Assembly (NCBI RefSeq): GCF_900095195.1 | Contig: NZ_LT606950.1 | Span: forward strand, 546,164 to 578,163 | DNA: 32,000 nucleotides | Origin: Polynucleobacter necessarius | Lineage (GTDB): Bacteria; Pseudomonadota; Gammaproteobacteria; Burkholderiales; Burkholderiaceae | Reading direction: 5' to 3' | Program-made: the position numbers and the translations under genes | Shown here: in pieces, positions 4,530 to 12,991 of the stretch | How the letters are laid out: each line of letters opens with the position of its first letter | Position numbering within the stretch: position 1 is the first letter of the stretch | The notes under the pieces: model-generated | The model's input: the letters and a program-made list of their open reading frames with translations, nothing else | What the model was told of the DNA's origin: nothing | Database searches by the model: none

Positions 4530-5915
4530 ATGAAACTCTCTCCATCGATTTTTAAAGCTTATGACATTCGCGGCATTATCGATGAGACTCTCGATCCCTC
4601 GATTGCAAAATTAATCGGTCAGGCCTTTGGCACCGAAATGCGCAATCTCGGTGAAACAGAGATTGTGATCGGCAGAGATGGTCGCTTATCGAGCCCAAGC
4701 CTCATTGAAGCATTAACTGAGGGTCTTTTATCCACAGGCATCAATGTGATCGATTTGGGTATGGTGGCTACGCCAATGGTGTACTTTGGTGCGAATCAAG
4801 TGCTCGATGGTAAAAAGCCAAAATCCGGCATCATGATTACAGGCAGCCATAACCCGCCAAATTACAACGGCTTCAAAATGGTTCTGGGTGGCTCAGCCAT
4901 ATACGGCGAGCAAATTCAGGCATTGCGCAAACGCATTGAAGCAACAGATTTTGTTTCGGGGCATGGAAACCGCTCTACCTTTGATATCTTCCCGATGTAC
5001 CTGAAACATATTGTTGGCGATGTGAAATTAGCCCGCCCTCTCAAGATTGCCGTGGATTGTGGCAATGGTGTTGGCGGCGCATTTGCTGGTCAATTGTTTA
5101 GAGCCATGGGTTGCGAAGTGCAAGAACTCTTTTGCGAGGTGGATGGTCATTTTCCGAATCACCATCCCGATCCAGCACATCTTGAGAATCTGCAAGACCT
5201 AATTAAAAACTTACAAACCACGGATAATGAGCTCGGTCTTGCCTTTGATGGCGACGCCGATCGCTTGGGTGTAGTGACCAAAGACGGTCAAGTGATCTTC
5301 CCCGATCGCCAGATGATGCTTTTTGCAAAGGACGTACTCTCCAGAAATCCGGGTGGCCAGATTATTTACGACGTGAAGTGCACTCGTAATCTTGCCAGCT
5401 GGGTAAAGCAACATGGTGGTGAGCCGCTGATGTGGAAAACTGGCCATTCGTTAGTGAAAGCCAAGCTCAAAGAAACTGGCGCCCCTCTTGCTGGTGAAAT
5501 GTCAGGACATATTTTCTTTAAGGATCGTTGGTTTGGTTTTGATGATGGTCTATACACCGGTGCACGTTTACTAGAGATTCTGTCCAAAAAAAAAGATCCT
5601 AATAAAGCACTTAATGACTTACCAAATGCTATCTGCACCCCAGAATTACAACTGGTTTGCGCCGAAGGCGAGCCTTTTGTTTTACTAGAAACGATTAAAG
5701 CCAATGCGAAGTTCCCCACATCTGAGTCCATTAATACTATTGATGGCGTGCGCGTGGAATACAAAGATGGTTTTGGTCTCGCAAGGCCATCCAATACCAC
5801 TCCGGTGGTAGTGATGCGCTTTGAAGCAGATAGTGAAGCAGCCATTGCGCGCATTCAGGCGGAGTTTAAAGCGGTGTTGTTGGCTGCTAAGCCAGATGCA
5901 ACGTTGCCGTTCTAG
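4530..5915 (+). CDS. phosphomannomutase/phosphoglucomutase (alpha-D-phosphohexomutase family)
   Basis: 461-aa ORF with the active-site serine loop 'TGSHNPPNYNGFK', the metal loop 'FDGDADRLG' and the sugar loop 'GEMSGHIFF'. It starts 27 nt after pgi and is probably co-transcribed. Confidence 0.9.
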   Translation: MKLSPSIFKAYDIRGIIDETLDPSIAKLIGQAFGTEMRNLGETEIVIGRDGRLSSPSLIEALTEGLLSTGINVIDLGMVATPMVYFGANQVLDGKKPKSGIMITGSHNPPNYNGFKMVLGGSAIYGEQIQALRKRIEATDFVSGHGNRSTFDIFPMYLKHIVGDVKLARPLKIAVDCGNGVGGAFAGQLFRAMGCEVQELFCEVDGHFPNHHPDPAHLENLQDLIKNLQTTDNELGLAFDGDADRLGVVTKDGQVIFPDRQMMLFAKDVLSRNPGGQIIYDVKCTRNLASWVKQHGGEPLMWKTGHSLVKAKLKETGAPLAGEMSGHIFFKDRWFGFDDGLYTGARLLEILSKKKDPNKALNDLPNAICTPELQLVCAEGEPFVLLETIKANAKFPTSESINTIDGVRVEYKDGFGLARPSNTTPVVVMRFEADSEAAIARIQAEFKAVLLAAKPDATLPF

Positions 5916-5951: not shown

Positions 5952-7077
5952 ATGACCTCAACCGCTAGTGCTCCAATCGCCTTTGATTATCCCCAACAAG
6001 ACTCAGCGGGGGTTACTTGCACTGCCCAAGCTTGGGCCAAGGTTCCCCCTCATTTGGCTGGACCAGAGAAGGCAGCAGTCGTTGCTCGCATTAAACAGTT
6101 GCTTGTGGAAAAAGATGCTGCGTTAGTCGCTCACTACTATGTGGATGGAGATATTCAAGATTTAGCACTGGAGACCGGCGGCTTTGTGGCGGATTCCTTA
6201 GAGATGGCACGTTTTGGCAAAAATCATTCCGCCAAGAATTTAATTGTTGCTGGTGTGCGCTTTATGGGTGAGACTGCCAAGATTCTGAGCCCTGAAAAAC
6301 GCATCTTTATGCCCGACTTGGATGCAACGTGCTCTCTTGACTTAGGCCGTGATGCATCCGACTTTGTAAGGTTTCGTGCTTTGCATCCCGATCGCGTGGT
6401 GGTTTACGCCAATACCTCAGCCGCTGTTAAAGCTCAGGCCGACTGGATGGTGACCAGCTCTTGCGCCCTAGCAATTGTTCATCAATTGAAAGTAGAAGGC
6501 AAAAAAAATCCTCTGGGCACCCGATCGTCACTTAGGTAGATATATTCAGGAACAAACTGGCGCTGATATGTTGCTCTGGAATGGTGCCTGTATCATCCAT
6601 GATGAATTCAAGGCGGCTGAGTTAGAGATTCTGAAAGCTGCGCACCCTAATGCCAAAATCTTGGTTCACCCTGAATCACCACAAGCCGTAGTTGATTTAG
6701 CGGATGTGGTGGGATCTACTTCAGCCATGATTAAAGCCGTCGTCGACGGCACCGCAACTGAATATATTGTGGCAACCGATAAGGGCATCTTGCACCGCAT
6801 GCGTCAGTTAGCTCCGAATAAAAAACTCATTGAAGCACCTACAGCGGGTAATGGTGCAACCTGCAAGAGCTGCGCCCACTGCCCCTGGATGGCCATGAAT
6901 GGCTTGCAAGGCATTTTAGATTGCCTAGAAAATGCTTCCGGCGAAATCTTTATCAATGAGCCAATTCGAGTAGAGGCGCTCGGTTGCATTGAACGTATGC
7001 TCGATTTCACTAAAAATCACCCCGATCTTCTTGCCAAAGCACAGCATGGCTTTGTTAAGAATATTGGCGCCGCTTAG
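5952..7077 (+). pseudogene. nadA: quinolinate synthase NadA, frameshifted
   Basis: ORFs 5952..6539 and 6568..7077 are the two halves of NadA ('[12 protein letters not shown]', 'ATCSLDLG', '[12 protein letters not shown]' / 'GACIIHDEF', '[13 protein letters not shown]'). The frames join across an A8 run at 6501-6508. With A7 the reading is '..[31 protein letters not shown]..'. This is the only lesion I saw. Confidence 0.85.
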
Positions 7078-7146
7078 AATTCATTTCATTTAGCGTTTGT
7101 TCATTACTCATCATTGTTCATTTGGTCACTCTTCTTCAATTTATTC

Positions 7147-8003
7147 ATGTTTGATTTCAACGAAACCTTAGAGCAAGCTCGTCAACGCAATATTCACGAT
7201 GCCTTGATGGAGGATATGGGCATCTGCGATTGGACCGCGAAATTAGTTCCCAGTAAAGTTGTTCAGGCGCAATTGATTGTGCGCCAAGATGCGGTGCTCT
7301 GTGGTGTGGATTGGTTTGAGGGCACGCTGAAGAAATTAGACCCCAACGCCAAAATCACCTGGCATTACATCGAGGGCGATATGATGGAAACAGACACCAA
7401 GGTCTGCGATATCTCTGCGGATGCTCAAGCTCTGCTCTCCGCTGAGCGCACTTGTATCAATTTTTACAAACTCTGTCTTGGACTGCCAGCATCACCCGCC
7501 AACACGTTGATGCCATTGCTGGGGCCAGCCCGAATCCAAAAGGTTGCGCCGTTCTCGATACGCGCAAGACCATTCCTGGACTACGGCAAGCGCAAAAGTA
7601 TGCCGTACGAATTGGCGGTGGCCAAAACCAGCGGCTTGCCCTCTGGCATGGCATTTTGATTAAAGAAAATCATATCGCCGCCGCTGGAAGCGTCACTGCT
7701 GCACTTAAGAATGCGCAAGCTCTCAATTCTGGGGTGGATATTCAGATTGAGGTTGAGAATTTTGACGAACTTGAAGAAGCTTTGGCTGCAGGTGCTAAAA
7801 GTATTTTGATTGACAACTTTGATACCGAGCAAATGAAACAAGCGGTAGCCATCACGGCTGGACGTGCGCTCTTAGAAGCCTCTGGCGGTATTAATCTGGA
7901 TCAAATGCGTGCGATTGCCGCTGCTGGAGCGAATCGCATTTCTCTTGGCAAACTCACCAAGGATGTAATTGCTGTCGACTTCTCAATGCGTATTTTGGGA
8001 TAA
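7147..8003 (+). pseudogene. nadC: nicotinate-nucleotide diphosphorylase (quinolinate phosphoribosyltransferase) NadC, frameshifted
   Basis: ORFs 7114..7659 and 7452..8003 overlap. The frames join at the T5 run 7461-7465, and T6 would give 'SAERTCINFLQTLSWTASITRQHVDA'. The downstream part has 'LDTRKTIPGLR..KYAVRIGGGQN' and 'IKENHI'. The likely start is the ATG at 7147. Confidence 0.85.
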
Positions 8004-8008
8004 CTTAT

Positions 8009-9630
8009 TTACGCTTCCTGCGAAGTGTCGCTAGTTTCAACTTGTGGCGTCAAAATCGGTGGGTATGATACAGCCCAAGTTCCTGGGTAATCGCGACTGT
8101 AATGCAATCCCTGCTCTCACGACGCATCAAGGCTGAACGCACGATAAGCTCTGCACATTCAAGCAAATTTCGCAATTCAATCAAGTCGCGAGTCACTTTA
8201 AAATTAGCGTAATACCCCTGCACCTCATAACGAAGTAACTTAATACGGTGCAGCGCGCGATCTAGTCGACGATTCGTTCGCACAATACCAACGTAGTTCC
8301 ACATGAGAGAACGTAATTCATCCTAGTTATGGGCAATCACCACCTGCTCGTCCGCATCCTCGACTTGACTCTCGTCCCATAGGGGTAGGCTTGGCATTGC
8401 TGGCGTCTTCAATCCGGAGATATCTTCAGCGGCAGCTTTGCCAATCACGACGCATTCCAATAAAGAGTTGCTTGCAAGGCGATTCGCGCCATGCAATCCA
8501 GTGTAAGTGGCCTCACCAACAGCATACAAACCTGGTAAGTCAGTGCGCCCCTTCAGGTCAGTGACGACACCGCCACAGGTGTAATGCGCTGCTGGAACGA
8601 CAGGTATCGGCTCTTTAGGATATCTAATCCCAGACTTAAACAACGCGCATAGATCATCGGGAAATGTTCTTTGATAAATGCTTCACCTAAATGAGTGGTG
8701 TCTAGGCAAACATAATCTAAGCCGTGCTTTTTCATTTCGAAGTCAATGGCACGGGCCACAATATCGCGAGGAGCGAGCTCATTACGCTCATCATGCTCGG
8801 GCATAAAACGTGTGCCATCTGGTAATTTAAGCAAGCCACCCTCGCCGCGCATGGCTTCGGTAATCAAAAATGTGCGATCACTTGGGTGGTAAAGGCATGT
8901 AGGATGAAATTGGATAAATTCCATATTGCCCACGCGACAACCAGCACGCCAGGCCATTGCAATTCCATCGCCCGTGGCTGTATCGGGGTTGCTGGTGTAG
9001 CGATAGACCTTACCGACACCACCAGTCGCAAGCACTACCGACTTAGCAGAAATGGTTTCCACGCGATTGTTTTTTATGTCGAGCGCATAGACTCCATAAC
9101 AACGATTAGGTTTTGTGCGCTGTGTTTTTGCATCCAAATGACGATTAGTAATGAGGTCCAAAGCAATCCAATTATGAGACTTTGCCTTATCAAGTAACAC
9201 CTCATGAATCGCTTTACCAGTTGCATCCGCAGCATGAGCAATTCGGCGATGGCTATGCCCACCCTCACGTGTGAGATGCAAGCCCATCGGTCCTGACTTA
9301 TCTTCTGTAAATGGAACGCCCTGCTCCACCAACCATTTAATCGCCTGAGCACTTTCTTCGGCGATATAACGTGCGGTTGACTCCACCACTAAACCCGCGC
9401 CCGCATTTAAGGTGTCTGCCACATGAGCATCAATACTGTCATGCTCTTGGTCGACAACACCTACGATGCCACCCTGAGCCCAAGCAGTTGCCAACTTCAT
9501 TTAAGCCTCGTTTAGCCATCAAAATGACGGGTTGCGTCTCTGCCATATGCAAAGCAACCGTCAAGCCTGCTAAACCGGCTCCGATAATCAGAACCGGTAA
9601 ATCTGCCTGAGACTGGGAAGAAGTTGGTGT
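8009..9630 (-). pseudogene. nadB: L-aspartate oxidase NadB, multiply disrupted and missing its start
   Basis: Four fragments on the minus strand. The FAD-binding N-terminus 'DLPVLIIGAGLAGLTVAL' sits in the tail of ORF 9439..9960. Then come 8553..9500 ('AWAQGGIVGV..DTLNAGAGL', 'RGEGG'), 8323..8643 ('[13 protein letters not shown]', '[15 protein letters not shown]') and 8050..8304. Lesions are frameshifts near 9495 and 8617, TGG->TAG at 8323-8325 ('[13 protein letters not shown]'), and a -1 shift in the C3 run 8109-8111 (one more base restores '[12 protein letters not shown]'). The restored frame ends at the stop 8009-8011. Confidence 0.85.
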
Positions 9631-9636
9631 GGGAAT

Positions 9637-11880
9637 GCCCACTTCACCCCGACGAGATTGAATAGTAATTGCATCCCCAGCGGAGACACCCAATTGCGCC
9701 ATATCTTCACCATTCATAGATACCGTTGCCATTGGCTCAATTGCATCGAGCACGATTGCACGGCGCGTCATACTGCCAGTGTGCCAATGCTCTAACTGGC
9801 GTCCAGTGATCAAGACAAATTGGTATTCAGAATCTGGTCGCTCGTTCGCAGGAATAATGTCTGCTGGCACCAGTTTGGCTTTGCCATCGGGTGTGGCAAA
9901 GATGTCATCAAATACGATAGGACGACCTGGGTCATCAAGTGACAAACAAGAATAGGTCACATAGATTCTTTTTCTAGATGCCCCCAGGAAATCCCTTTAA
10001 TGGCACCCATGCATCGCTTGGCGCATTTCTTCATACACTTCAGCTACACCAGCATCAGGACCTTGGCAATTCCAATTGAGGCCCATGCGTTTCGCAATCT
10101 CTTGAATAATCCACAAATCAGGCTTTGCTTCACCCGGAGGCTCAACGGCTTTCTTGCCTAACTGCACCATACGGTCCGTGTTGCTGGCGGTACCGACTTT
10201 TTCAGGCCAAGCGCTCGCAGGCAAAACGACATCAGCCAATAGCGCAGTTTCCGTCATGAAAATATCTTGCACCACTAAATGCTCAAGCGAAGCTAAGGCA
10301 TGACGCGCATGATTTAAATCGGGGTCGCTCATCGCAGGATTCTCACCCTCTACATACATGCCACGAATCTTGTCGGGGTCGCTGTCGGGTGCAGTAATCT
10401 TGTGCATGATTTCAACAACGGTGTAACCCGGCCTCTTATCAAGCGGCGTGTTCCAAAACTTCTCAAACCAAGCATGCGCCTCTGGGTTATCAACCCGTTG
10501 GTAATTGGGGAACATCATCGGAATCAAACCGGCATCACTAGCGCCCTGCACGTTATTTTGCCCGCGCAATGGTTGAAAACCGGATCCAGGCTTACCAATT
10601 TGGCCAGTAATGCTGACCAAGGCAATGAGGCAACGTGCATTGTCGGTGCCGTGTACGTGCTGACTAACACCCATGTCCCACAAACTCATGGCAGACTTGG
10701 TTGTCGCAAACTCTCGGGCTACTTCACGCAAGGTTTCCGCCGGAATGCCCCAAATTGGGGCCATCGCTTCAGGGCTATAGCCTTTGATGTTTTCTTTTAA
10801 GGCTTCATAGTTATTCGCGCGATTAGCGATGAAATCTTTATCCGCCAAGCCCTCTTCAATGATCGTGTAGATCATGGCATTGAGCATCGCCACATCCGTA
10901 TCCGGCTTGAACTGCATGGTACGCCATGCATGTTTACTAATCTCCGTTTTGCGTGAATCGCATAATACGAGCTTTGCACCTCGTTTAGCAGCGTTCTTAA
11001 ACCAGGTGGCAGCAACTAGATGGTTTGCCGTTGGGTTGGAACCAATCAACATAATTAAGCTGGAATGCTCAACATCATTAACCTGGTTACTCACCGCACC
11101 AGAACCTACACCCTCAAGCGGTGCCGCCACTGATGACGCGTGGCATAGACGAGTACAGCGGTCGACGTTATTACTTCCAAAACCAGTGCGTACCAATTTT
11201 TGAAATAGATACGCTTCTTCGTTGCTTCCTTTTGCAGAACCAAAGCCAGCTAAGACTTTGAGACCATGTTTGTCTTTGAGCTCTTTGAGTTTGCCGCCTG
11301 CAAAATCGAGCGCTTCCTCCCAAGTGGCCTCACGGAAGATATCGGACCAATCTTGTTTACCTTCCAAAATCGATTCATCTTTGGGTACGCCAGGTTTACG
11401 AATGAGTGGCTTAGTTAAACGTTTTGGGTTATGGATGTAATCCATACCAAAACGACCTTTTACACAAAGACGATTGTGATTAGCTGGACCATCACGACCC
11501 TCAATACTGACAATCTTGTCATTTTTAATGTTATAGGTGATCTGGCAACCAACACCACAGAGTGGACAAACTGAATCTACCTTGCGGTCAACCGTTTGCG
11601 ATCTAATTAAACCTTTTGGCATCAACGCGCCTGTTGGGCAAGTTTGTACGCACTCACCGCAGGCAACTCAGGTACTTTCACCCATCGAATCATTGAGATC
11701 AAACACAATCTCACTGTGTGCACCGCGCATTGCGTAGCCGATCACATCGTTGACTTGTTCTTCGCGGCAAGCACGCACACAACGATTGCATTGGATACAC
11801 GCATCTAAGTTCACCGCCATCGCAGGATGCGAGACATCGCTCGCCACCTTCTCACAACGCAGCGCCTTGAGCTCTGGGCG
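9637..11880 (-). pseudogene. fdsA: NAD-dependent formate dehydrogenase alpha subunit (FdsA/molybdopterin oxidoreductase), truncated at both ends with internal stops
   Basis: Three fragments: 11668..11901 ('NLDACIQCNRCVRACREEQ'), 9997..11625 ('CPLCGVGCQ', Mo-ligand region 'CTRLCHASSVA') and 9439..9960 ('ITGRQLEHWHTGSMTRR'). There is an in-frame TGA at 11668-11670 and an in-frame TAA at 9997-9999. The N-terminal 2Fe-2S part and roughly the last 80 codons are missing. End coordinates are approximate. Confidence 0.8.
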
Positions 11881-11884
11881 AACA

Positions 11885-12139
11885 GCAGGCCTTGATCCCA
11901 TTACATCTGCTGATTTGGATCAGACCATTATGGACTTGTCTAAAAATTTAGGCATTACCTTTGTGATTGTGTCGCACGAGTTAGCGAGTATCTATGCGAT
12001 CGCTGATAAGGTCATTATGTTGGACAAGTGCGCTAAGGGCATTATTGCCGAAGGTGATTCCAAGGTATTGCGCGATATCAGCACAGATCCCCGCGTACAT
12101 CAATTCTTTAATCGCATTACGACTAAGGACGCAGCATGA
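11885..12139 (+). pseudogene. 3' fragment of an MlaF-like ABC transporter ATP-binding protein
   Basis: Only the region after Walker B survives: 'AGLDPITSADLDQTIMDLSKNLGITFVIVSHELASIYAIADKVIMLD...DPRVHQFF'. Sequence upstream of ~11885 is antisense fdsA. The stop overlaps the next gene's ATG (ATGA at 12136-12139). Confidence 0.75.
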
Positions 12140-12991
12140 GTAATAACTCAAACCCTAACTATTTCCGACTTGGCGTATTTGTCATTGCCGCGATCGCCGT
12201 CCTAATTTCGGTGATCTTGATCTTTGGCTCAGGACAATTGTTTAAGAAATCGTTTTATATCGAAACCTACATCAAGCAATCGGTCACCGGTTTAGATGTT
12301 GGAGCGGCAGTACGATTTCGGGGTATCAAGATTGGCCAAGTGAGCATGATAGGGCTTACAGGCGATATTTACGAGGAAGAGATTCCCTTTAACAAATGGT
12401 CTACGCTCACGAGTCAAGTCTATGGGTATCACGGGTGTGAATTACATCGAATTCGATTTTTTGCCAAAAAGCGCCAGTCAATATACTGAATTACCATACA
12501 GCTGGAAGCCAAAGTATCCCGTCATCCCATCGTTTCCTAACCAAGCTGATGAGATTATTTTTGGCATTCAAAAGCTGATTGATGGCATGAATCAAATCAA
12601 TATCGATGGCACTCAACAAAAGTTTGATCAGCTATTGGGTAATCTCAATAGCTTGATGGCAGGTGATGGCAAAAATAATCAAGGCTTAATTAACTCCGTA
12701 AAAGACTTGAATGTCATTTTGGAGCGCATTGCCAAGGTAACCGATAAAGACGAACTAAATGTTTTGATGCGCGAACTCGTAGGCGCTATGGTTTCCTTGC
12801 GTCAAACTATCACGACGATGCAGGGTGACACACAATTGACTATTGAAAACCTGAAGTAAACCAGCGAGCCACTCAACGAGTTTTCCCGAATTGCGAGCCA
12901 GTCGCCAGCCAGTTTGATTTGAGGTGAGCCGCCTCCGCGGATTACGCCACCCATGAATGGCACTCAGACTCAACTAGGAGCAGCAAAATGA
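12136..12991 (+). pseudogene. MCE/MlaD-family substrate-binding protein, frameshifted with two in-frame stops
   Basis: ORFs 12136..12489 (TM anchor 'LGVFVIAAIAVLISVILIF', 'LDVGAAVRFRGIKIGQV') and 12422..12859 ('MGITGVNYIEFDF') are in different frames, with the shift near 12390-12420. The reading continues through TAA 12857-12859 and TGA 12920-12922 ('SLI*GEPPP') to a stop at 12989-12991, which overlaps the next ATG. Confidence 0.75.

Follow-up and report, generated by a model that had tools for sequence, protein, structure and literature searches.

Can a Polynucleobacter that is restricted to a host still make its own nicotinamide adenine dinucleotide (NAD)? The question is raised by a 32,000-nucleotide (nt) stretch of contig NZ_LT606950.1 of Polynucleobacter necessarius, the symbiont of Euplotes (the window, to whose positions all coordinates refer unless another source is named, with strands given as + or -), in which all three genes of de novo NAD biosynthesis, nadA, nadC and nadB, are interrupted. 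The lesions show the route from aspartate over iminoaspartate and quinolinate to nicotinate mononucleotide (NaMN), as predicted from its genes, to be genetically dead at all three steps. We propose, with a probability of about 0.75, that nadABC are real and fairly young pseudogenes of a host-restricted bacterium whose pyridine nucleotide would be supplied by the host.

The locus consists of an open phosphomannomutase/phosphoglucomutase gene (4530-5915) followed by nadA, nadC, nadB, and the remains of fdsA. Pfam searches of the window split each of the nadA, nadC, and nadB families across several short open reading frames (ORFs). Intact NadA (375 aa), NadC (285 aa), and NadB (551 aa) of a genome of the same genus (G002, locus L004) served as references, and lesions were mapped by tblastn of these proteins against the window together with DNA alignment to 11-28 intact relatives (Table 1). 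The closest proteins in the database bear the name Polynucleobacter. Relatives within the genus share 70-80% DNA identity with the window genome, and the tblastn identity of the three genes to the reference proteins was 79-91%.

All three genes are readily assigned to their families, and none has kept a continuous reading frame. The nadA product is 82-89% identical at the protein level to the reference over residues 1-375, and the whole family profile (PF02445) was matched (positions 2-133 and 131/158-295, 150-172 bits); no single open frame covers the full protein, which makes the gene a pseudogene of the family and not a working member. Both NadC domains were detected (PF02749, 52 bits; PF01729, 163 bits), in different frames, so that a single open frame is lacking. 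The pieces of NadB (TIGR00551; PF00890 and PF02910) scored 336 and 204 bits, both below the cut-off of 452.75, and no full-length match was obtained. An unusual NadC motif, GGGQNQRLALWH (7600-7640, +), in place of the usual ...NHR.GL.D, at first looked like the mark of a decaying gene. That reading was rejected, the intact reference NadC being nearly identical there (GSGQNQRLALWH); this odd active-site motif is a trait of the genus.

Table 1. Pseudogenes, lesions, and junctions at the nadA-nadC-nadB locus of the window.
Feature	Position	Strand	Evidence
nadA pseudogene (quinolinate synthase), full length	5952-7077	+	Pfam NadA, both halves; tblastn, two high-scoring segment pairs (HSPs), two frames, residues 1-375
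nadA, 3-nt in-frame deletion, one Val/Thr codon lost	between 6395 and 6396	+	tblastn and DNA alignment
nadA, +1 frameshift, A8 run	6501-6508	+	A7 in several relatives (GGY-AARAARATH); alignment with 11 shown relatives; tblastn frame change 6502-6506
nadC pseudogene (quinolinate phosphoribosyltransferase), full length	7147-8003	+	Pfam QRPTase_N and QRPTase_C in two frames; tblastn residues 1-106, 106-285
nadC, -1 frameshift, T5 run	7461-7465	+	T6 in relatives (AAT TTT TTA)
nadB pseudogene (L-aspartate oxidase)	8009-9633	-	tblastn, four HSPs, three frames, one internal stop, residues 6-551; Pfam FAD_binding_2 and Succ_DH_flav_C in pieces
nadB, -1 deletion, G3 run	8109-8111	-	G4 in close relatives; tblastn frame change 8110-8113
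nadB, nonsense TGG to TAG, W447 (G002 numbering)	8323-8325	-	TGG in all aligned relatives
nadB, -1 deletion	8617-8620 (~8619/8618)	-	relatives GATATTAC, window GATATC-C; tblastn frame change
nadB, 21-nt (7-codon) in-frame deletion, FAD domain	junction 9172/9173	-	tblastn and DNA alignment
nadB, +1 insertion with substitution	9492-9495 (~9494)	-	relatives GAAGCT-GCT, window GAAGTTGGCA
Deletion junction, truncated fdsA fused in frame to nadB	9625-9642	-	FdsA match ends at ATT 9636-9634; NadB alignment from CCA 9627-9625 onward
fdsA remnant (formate dehydrogenase alpha subunit), one internal stop, 3' end deleted	9634-10770	-	Pfam; comparison with G002 FdsA

A preliminary description of this DNA had named an extra A in nadA, a missing T in nadC, and in nadB three frameshifts and a nonsense codon. 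Alignment with intact relatives, together with tblastn, bore out every one of these lesions within 3 nt of the position assigned to it. The extra A takes the nadA frame to a stop at 6537-6539. The statement that nadA carries a single lesion holds for this frameshift, but overlooked the 3-nt in-frame deletion; likewise all the nadB lesions listed are real, and the 21-nt in-frame deletion had been passed over. Three of the five single-base indels of nadA, nadB, and nadC lie in mononucleotide runs.

Loss of the nadB start region by fusion to fdsA debris, also put forward earlier, was confirmed by comparison of the junction with G002. In that genome FdsA (QSRRGEVGIHVRRDDG) has another 74 residues before its stop codon, beyond which come a 104-nt spacer with a terminator hairpin and then the nadB ATG (MASSIPTSAQ...). 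In the window the protein reading passes directly from QSRRGEVGI to PTPTSSQ, and no match to FdsA residues 380-453 was found there. The gene is thereby left without its first ~4-5 codons, ribosome-binding site, and promoter region. Since the reference has 74 FdsA residues, a spacer, and a nadB start where the window reads straight through, a deletion of ~340 nt has taken away the 3' end of fdsA, the spacer, and, from nadB, the start signals and the first 4-5 codons. An in-frame GTG (9642-9640) was tried as a surviving nadB start and rejected, being the Val codon of RRGEVGI in FdsA. The fusion forms a chimeric open frame of 173 codons (9439-9960, -) that leads from the molybdopterin-binding domain of FdsA into the flavin adenine dinucleotide (FAD)-binding N-terminus of NadB, and a G-rich stretch precedes the GTG. 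Given the nadB lesions downstream, this frame is functionally irrelevant.

Near strains were compared using assembled Logan contigs of public runs (X1, X2, and X4), not raw reads; the sharing of lesions was read from comparison tables, partly by length arithmetic, and the gap positions of X1 are not printed in them. Contigs of X4 (depth 331) and X2 represent a sister strain ~97% identical to the window, in which nadA has deletions of 227 and 533 nt, nadC of 96 and 375 nt, and nadB of 45 nt together with an inversion of about 9111-9631. Because all three genes of this strain have suffered deletions, one of them an inversion as well, nadABC are dispensable in the lineage. The extra base at 9494 is expressly missing from X4, and both X4 and X2 retain the 21 nt lost from nadB in the window (163 vs 142 nt over 9111-9252). 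X4 and X2 disagree with each other at 9493-9494, and the inversion ends on its right side no more than 2 nt from the position of the window's fdsA/nadB junction. X1 consists of short contigs, ~99% identical to the window, from a freshwater metagenome. Over 8063-8522 its contig matches the window at every position but 8260, so the nadB TAG is common to both. X1 also seems to lack the nadA 3-nt deletion (664 nt vs 661) and the 9494 insertion (404 nt vs 405), two readings that come from length arithmetic and are suggestive only. A search of metagenome contigs with a 21-mer spanning the TAG, its variable base written as R, returned 36 loci, all with TGG and all at no more than 80% identity, and no close strain among them. 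Taken with these independent assemblies, nadA, nadC, and nadB are predicted to be real pseudogenes.

The window genome is a single contig of 1,550,368 bp, 99.7% complete. Family profiles and tblastn over this whole genome revealed no second copy of nadA, nadB, or nadC; the only other match to the NadB family (TIGR00551) is SdhA (TIGR01816, 917 bits). Aspartate dehydrogenase NadX (PF01958), a possible bypass, gave no match in the genome, with a positive control in three genomes. With the lesions verified and no intact copy elsewhere, the earlier claim that all three steps from aspartate to NaMN are lost was upheld.

The dependence on an external pyridine that had been predicted from this loss stands as well, but the classical salvage by which it was to be satisfied does not. 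Of the salvage genes proposed for a search, nadD and nadE were found, and pncA, pncB, nadR, pnuC, and nadV were not. In the 99.7%-complete genome there was no match to nicotinate phosphoribosyltransferase (pncB/nadV, PF04095) or to the isochorismatase family (pncA, PF00857), the controls for both being positive; PnuC (PF04973) had no match, and NadR (TIGR01526) yielded only 19-bit matches against a cut-off of 341. Nor was pncB (PF04095) present in any of 15 relatives within the genus, or PnuC in any of 12 members, free-living relatives being among both sets. As free-living relatives are also without pncB and PnuC, no ancestral salvage was there to take over. The members of the genus that were searched, of which the majority have intact nad genes, seem to depend on de novo NAD and the PncC/NadD/NadE loop alone.

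Three genes remain intact and full length in the window genome. nadD (NF005410, 219.2 bits vs a cut-off of 214, profile positions 19-242 of 243) lies outside the window at G000:C1:407409-408044, and the glutamine-dependent nadE (NF010588, 795.5 bits vs a cut-off of 479, positions 5-543 of 546), likewise outside it, at 462926-464530; the third is a gene with a PncC domain (TIGR00199, 147 bits). If nadD and nadE had drifted neutrally over the same time as nadABC, they should by now carry 4.5-5.8 lesions (P of none = 0.003-0.011). None was found, and on this ground both are probably still in use.

The following course of events would account for these data. Inside the host, selection on the NAD pathway would have been relaxed, and lesions would then have built up as small indels, one nonsense mutation, and three deletions. 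Net pyridine would now come from the host cytoplasm as ready-made nucleotide, be it NaMN, nicotinamide mononucleotide (NMN), or NAD. It is the nucleotide, not the vitamin base, that would have to enter, because no enzyme for salvage of base or riboside was found in this genome or in the members of the genus searched. Import would proceed through a carrier with no recognisable homologue, and the retained NadD, NadE, and PncC-like protein would complete NAD from the mononucleotide or recycle NMN. The window genome would thus represent an intermediate stage toward complete loss of NAD synthesis.

Comparable decay was detected elsewhere in the genus. A single full-length nadA is present in nearly all of 241 genomes, and three genomes of ~1.7 Mb (G062, G078, and G166) have broken nad genes. 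In G062, nadA has a frameshift and is missing codons ~139-316 (about 178), nadB has one frameshift, and nadC is open. G078 has a stop and a frameshift in nadA, two frameshifts in nadC, and a nadB reduced to codons 1-68. In G166, nadA lacks codons 234-330 (about 97) and nadB codons 1-164, and nadC is open. None of these lesions coincides with those of the window. The damage extends to later steps in two of the genomes: nadD of G078 is shifted out of frame at a C8 run and also interrupted by a TAA (L054:500-520 and 707-709), its nadE a TAA at about codon 161 (L056:948-950), and nadE of G062 a TGA at about codon 380 (L057:1591-1593). Five further candidates for a broken nadA (G205, G172, G176, G159, and G057) were ruled out as contig-edge artefacts with open genes, and four genomes with no DNA match (G152, G201, G212, and G227), which are 88-93%-complete assemblies of 50-90 contigs, were excluded from inference. 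In a nadC tree the window genome, G062, G078, and G166 were interspersed among intact genomes (a single-gene tree, whose supports were not examined). We take the pathway to have decayed on separate occasions in no fewer than three further reduced genomes of the genus. Independent origins of symbiotic Polynucleobacter strains with genomes of 1.7-1.8 Mb have been reviewed (PMC11253213), and the scatter in the nadC tree fits them.

Several observations weigh against the proposed explanation, of which some concern the lesions themselves. The sole frameshifts of nadA and nadC are both single-base length changes in homopolymers, the commonest sites of sequencing error. No near-identical contig covering the nadA A8 run (6501-6508) was found among the assembled Logan contigs, and the X1 contig over the nadC run (7189-7483) is one base longer than the window (296 vs 295 nt; by length arithmetic, and suggestive only), which would fit T6. 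Both runs might accordingly be assembly miscalls, nadA and nadC being intact and only nadB dead. We consider this highly improbable. The same genome carries lesions that owe nothing to homopolymers, namely the TAG, the deletions of 3, 21, and ~340 nt, and those indels that do not lie in runs; the sister strain, at depth 331, has deleted 533 nt of nadA and 96 and 375 nt of nadC, which argues that the genes are not needed in the lineage; and with nadB dead and NadX absent, intact nadA and nadC would have no known source of substrate.

The same slippery runs allow a different rescue, in which transcriptional or translational slippage restores nadA and nadC at a low level and a trickle of NaMN is made from host quinolinate or from non-enzymatically formed iminoaspartate. 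Both genes are otherwise full length with few damaging replacements (3/222 and 3/142 invariant sites, respectively), and nadC has stayed open in G062 and G166. Efficient slippage, however, reportedly needs runs of ~9 or more, and the runs here are of 8 and 5; at least five lesions interrupt nadB, the genome has no aspartate dehydrogenase, and large parts of nadA and nadC are deleted in the sister strain. Such a rescue is in our judgment still less credible than miscalled runs, and we take nadABC to be probable pseudogenes in what follows.

The remaining points against the explanation bear on how NAD is obtained. The uptake step is one that we infer: no transporter candidate was found, and the search for TLC/NTT carriers (PF03219), which gave no match in the window genome or in eight others, had no positive control, the family being silent in all 14 control genomes too. 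According to a published metabolic comparison (PMC5632650), P. necessarius is a prototroph with respect to every vitamin. For nicotinate/NAD the predicted state of the locus contradicts that statement; the comparison may have treated split nad genes as intact ones. Finally, with nadD and nadE dead in G078 and a stop in nadE of G062, it may be whole NAD that is imported, and nadD and nadE of the window genome may only recycle NMN.

This last point amounts to an alternative in its own right, namely that whole NAD, not a mononucleotide, is taken up, and that nadD, nadE, and pncC have been kept only to recycle NMN set free by the NAD-dependent DNA ligase or have so far merely escaped damage. PncC, NadD, and NadE form an established NMN recycling loop, and G078, having lost nadD and nadE besides nadABC, would have to import whole NAD, the only way left to it. 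On the other hand, nadD and nadE of the window genome are free of the 4.5-5.8 lesions expected of neutral sequences as old as the nadABC pseudogenes, and no NTT/TLC homologue was seen in the nine genomes, although there the control was silent. Uptake of whole NAD alone is possible and is held here tentatively; entry of a nucleotide that NadD and NadE can still finish or recycle is the form of host supply that we prefer. We have also considered, as a rather unlikely idea, that the core genome of the genus, free-living members included, encodes an unrecognised uptake route for NAD, NMN, or NaMN, to which none of the known carrier families corresponds, PnuC being absent and a TLC gene undetected. 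If true, it would explain how at least four host-restricted lineages could drop de novo NAD synthesis without gene gain, and also the later loss of nadE and nadD in G078 and G062.

The sequences suggest that nadABC decay is recent. Sites invariant among relatives have changed in the window at 3 of 222 positions in NadA, 3 of 142 in NadC, and 3 of 369 in NadB (the stop counted), and the nonsynonymous divergence (dN) from the nearest intact relative is 0.045-0.057 for nadA, nadC, and nadB alike. With only ~1% of invariant sites changed per gene and such values of dN, the pseudogenes would be fairly young and their pseudogene phase short. The synonymous divergence (dS) is >2 or undefined against every relative, that is, saturated, and dN/dS on the window branch says nothing.

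The order of loss is less easily read. The preliminary description spoke of very unequal lesion loads and had nadB inactivated first, nadA and nadC drifting afterwards. The inequality was overstated. Once gene length is counted, the share of nadB is within chance by a binomial test, whether all events (6 of 9, P = 0.17), disabling events (5 of 7, P = 0.16), or small lesions (4 of 6, P = 0.26) are taken, and nadB has no excess of changes at invariant sites. The argument from lesion counts consequently fails, but the proposed order draws some independent, if weak, support from the nadB TAG, the one lesion demonstrably common to the window and a second strain (X1); this weakly suggests that nadB went first. 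That all three genes lost constraint together at host restriction, the higher count in nadB reflecting chance and its greater length, comes only a little short of an even chance in our estimate. The binomial values and the even spread of invariant-site replacements speak for it, as does the different order elsewhere: nadA is the most decayed gene of G062, where nadC is open, and G166 has large deletions in both nadA and nadB. It is countered by the TAG shared with the near-identical X1 and by several window lesions that appear to be absent from X1 or X4: the insertion at 9494, the loss of 21 nt, and, probably, the T5 run of nadC.

Decay is not confined to the nad genes. fdsA is also dead (9634-11850, -): it has an internal stop near 9961-9996, its last 74 codons are gone with the deletion that beheaded nadB, and its N-terminal iron-sulfur part is missing upstream of a 542-aa ORF (9997-11625). 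In the adjoining region (11750-12859, +) the ORFs are short and overlap one another, and no more than a fragment of an MlaD domain (12136-12489) is left, which suggests more decayed genes beside fdsA.

Pseudogene-rich decay is already well known in the P. necessarius symbiont, and loss of nadABC is a new instance of it. Our search of the literature for the NAD pathway (nadA, nadB) in Polynucleobacter symbionts found none; the original papers of Boscaro and co-workers were outside that search. The result corrects metabolic reconstructions in which split genes are scored as present, and it adds a testable item, pyridine nucleotide and not a vitamin base, to what the Euplotes host would supply. 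The four genomes form a small natural series in the dismantling of a cofactor pathway, from nadABC only (window) to nadABC with nadE (G062) to all five genes (G078). They also point to a nucleotide carrier that could be searched for in a culturable genus.

Several known systems resemble this one in part. Intracellular bacteria auxotrophic for NAD, such as Protochlamydia (NTT4), Chlamydia (Npt1), and Rickettsia, import it by TLC/NTT carriers. The Polynucleobacter symbionts share with them the intracellular habit, the lack of de novo NAD, and a presumed dependence on host pyridine nucleotides, most completely in G078 with all five NAD genes lost; they differ in that no TLC gene was detected in the window genome and eight others (the control being silent) and in that the window genome keeps nadD and nadE. 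Haemophilus influenzae requires V factor, taking up nicotinamide riboside by PnuC and using NadR. There too the de novo and nicotinate routes are missing and host pyridine nucleotides are needed, but neither PnuC nor NadR was found here, NadD and NadE being present instead. In Shigella, inactivation of nadA and nadB has led to nicotinic acid auxotrophy, and with nadC and the pncA/pncB salvage retained the bacterium grows on nicotinate. Point lesions have killed nadA and nadB in both host-adapted lineages, descended from prototrophic ancestors, whereas in the window genome nadC is dead as well and pncB was not found in it or in the members of the genus searched.

Tamas and colleagues reportedly described in 2008 how transcriptional slippage restores genes of Buchnera and Blochmannia that are frameshifted in poly(A) tracts. 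The nadA lesion recalls those genes as a single-base change of an A run (A8) in an otherwise well-preserved endosymbiont gene; unlike them it has a shorter run and dead partner genes, and the region is deleted in the sister strain. The locus is ordinary symbiont gene decay, of which the missing uptake route is the one loose end. A close counterpart is the genome erosion of P. necessarius, an obligate symbiont of Euplotes, that Boscaro and co-workers are said to have described in PNAS in 2013 and again in 2017 (cited in PMC5632650 and PMC11253213). The two cases agree in genus and in the small size of the genome; pseudogenes of nearly full length, which arose through small indels and deletions and with no mobile DNA, stand amid intact housekeeping genes, and independent symbiotic lineages decay in parallel.

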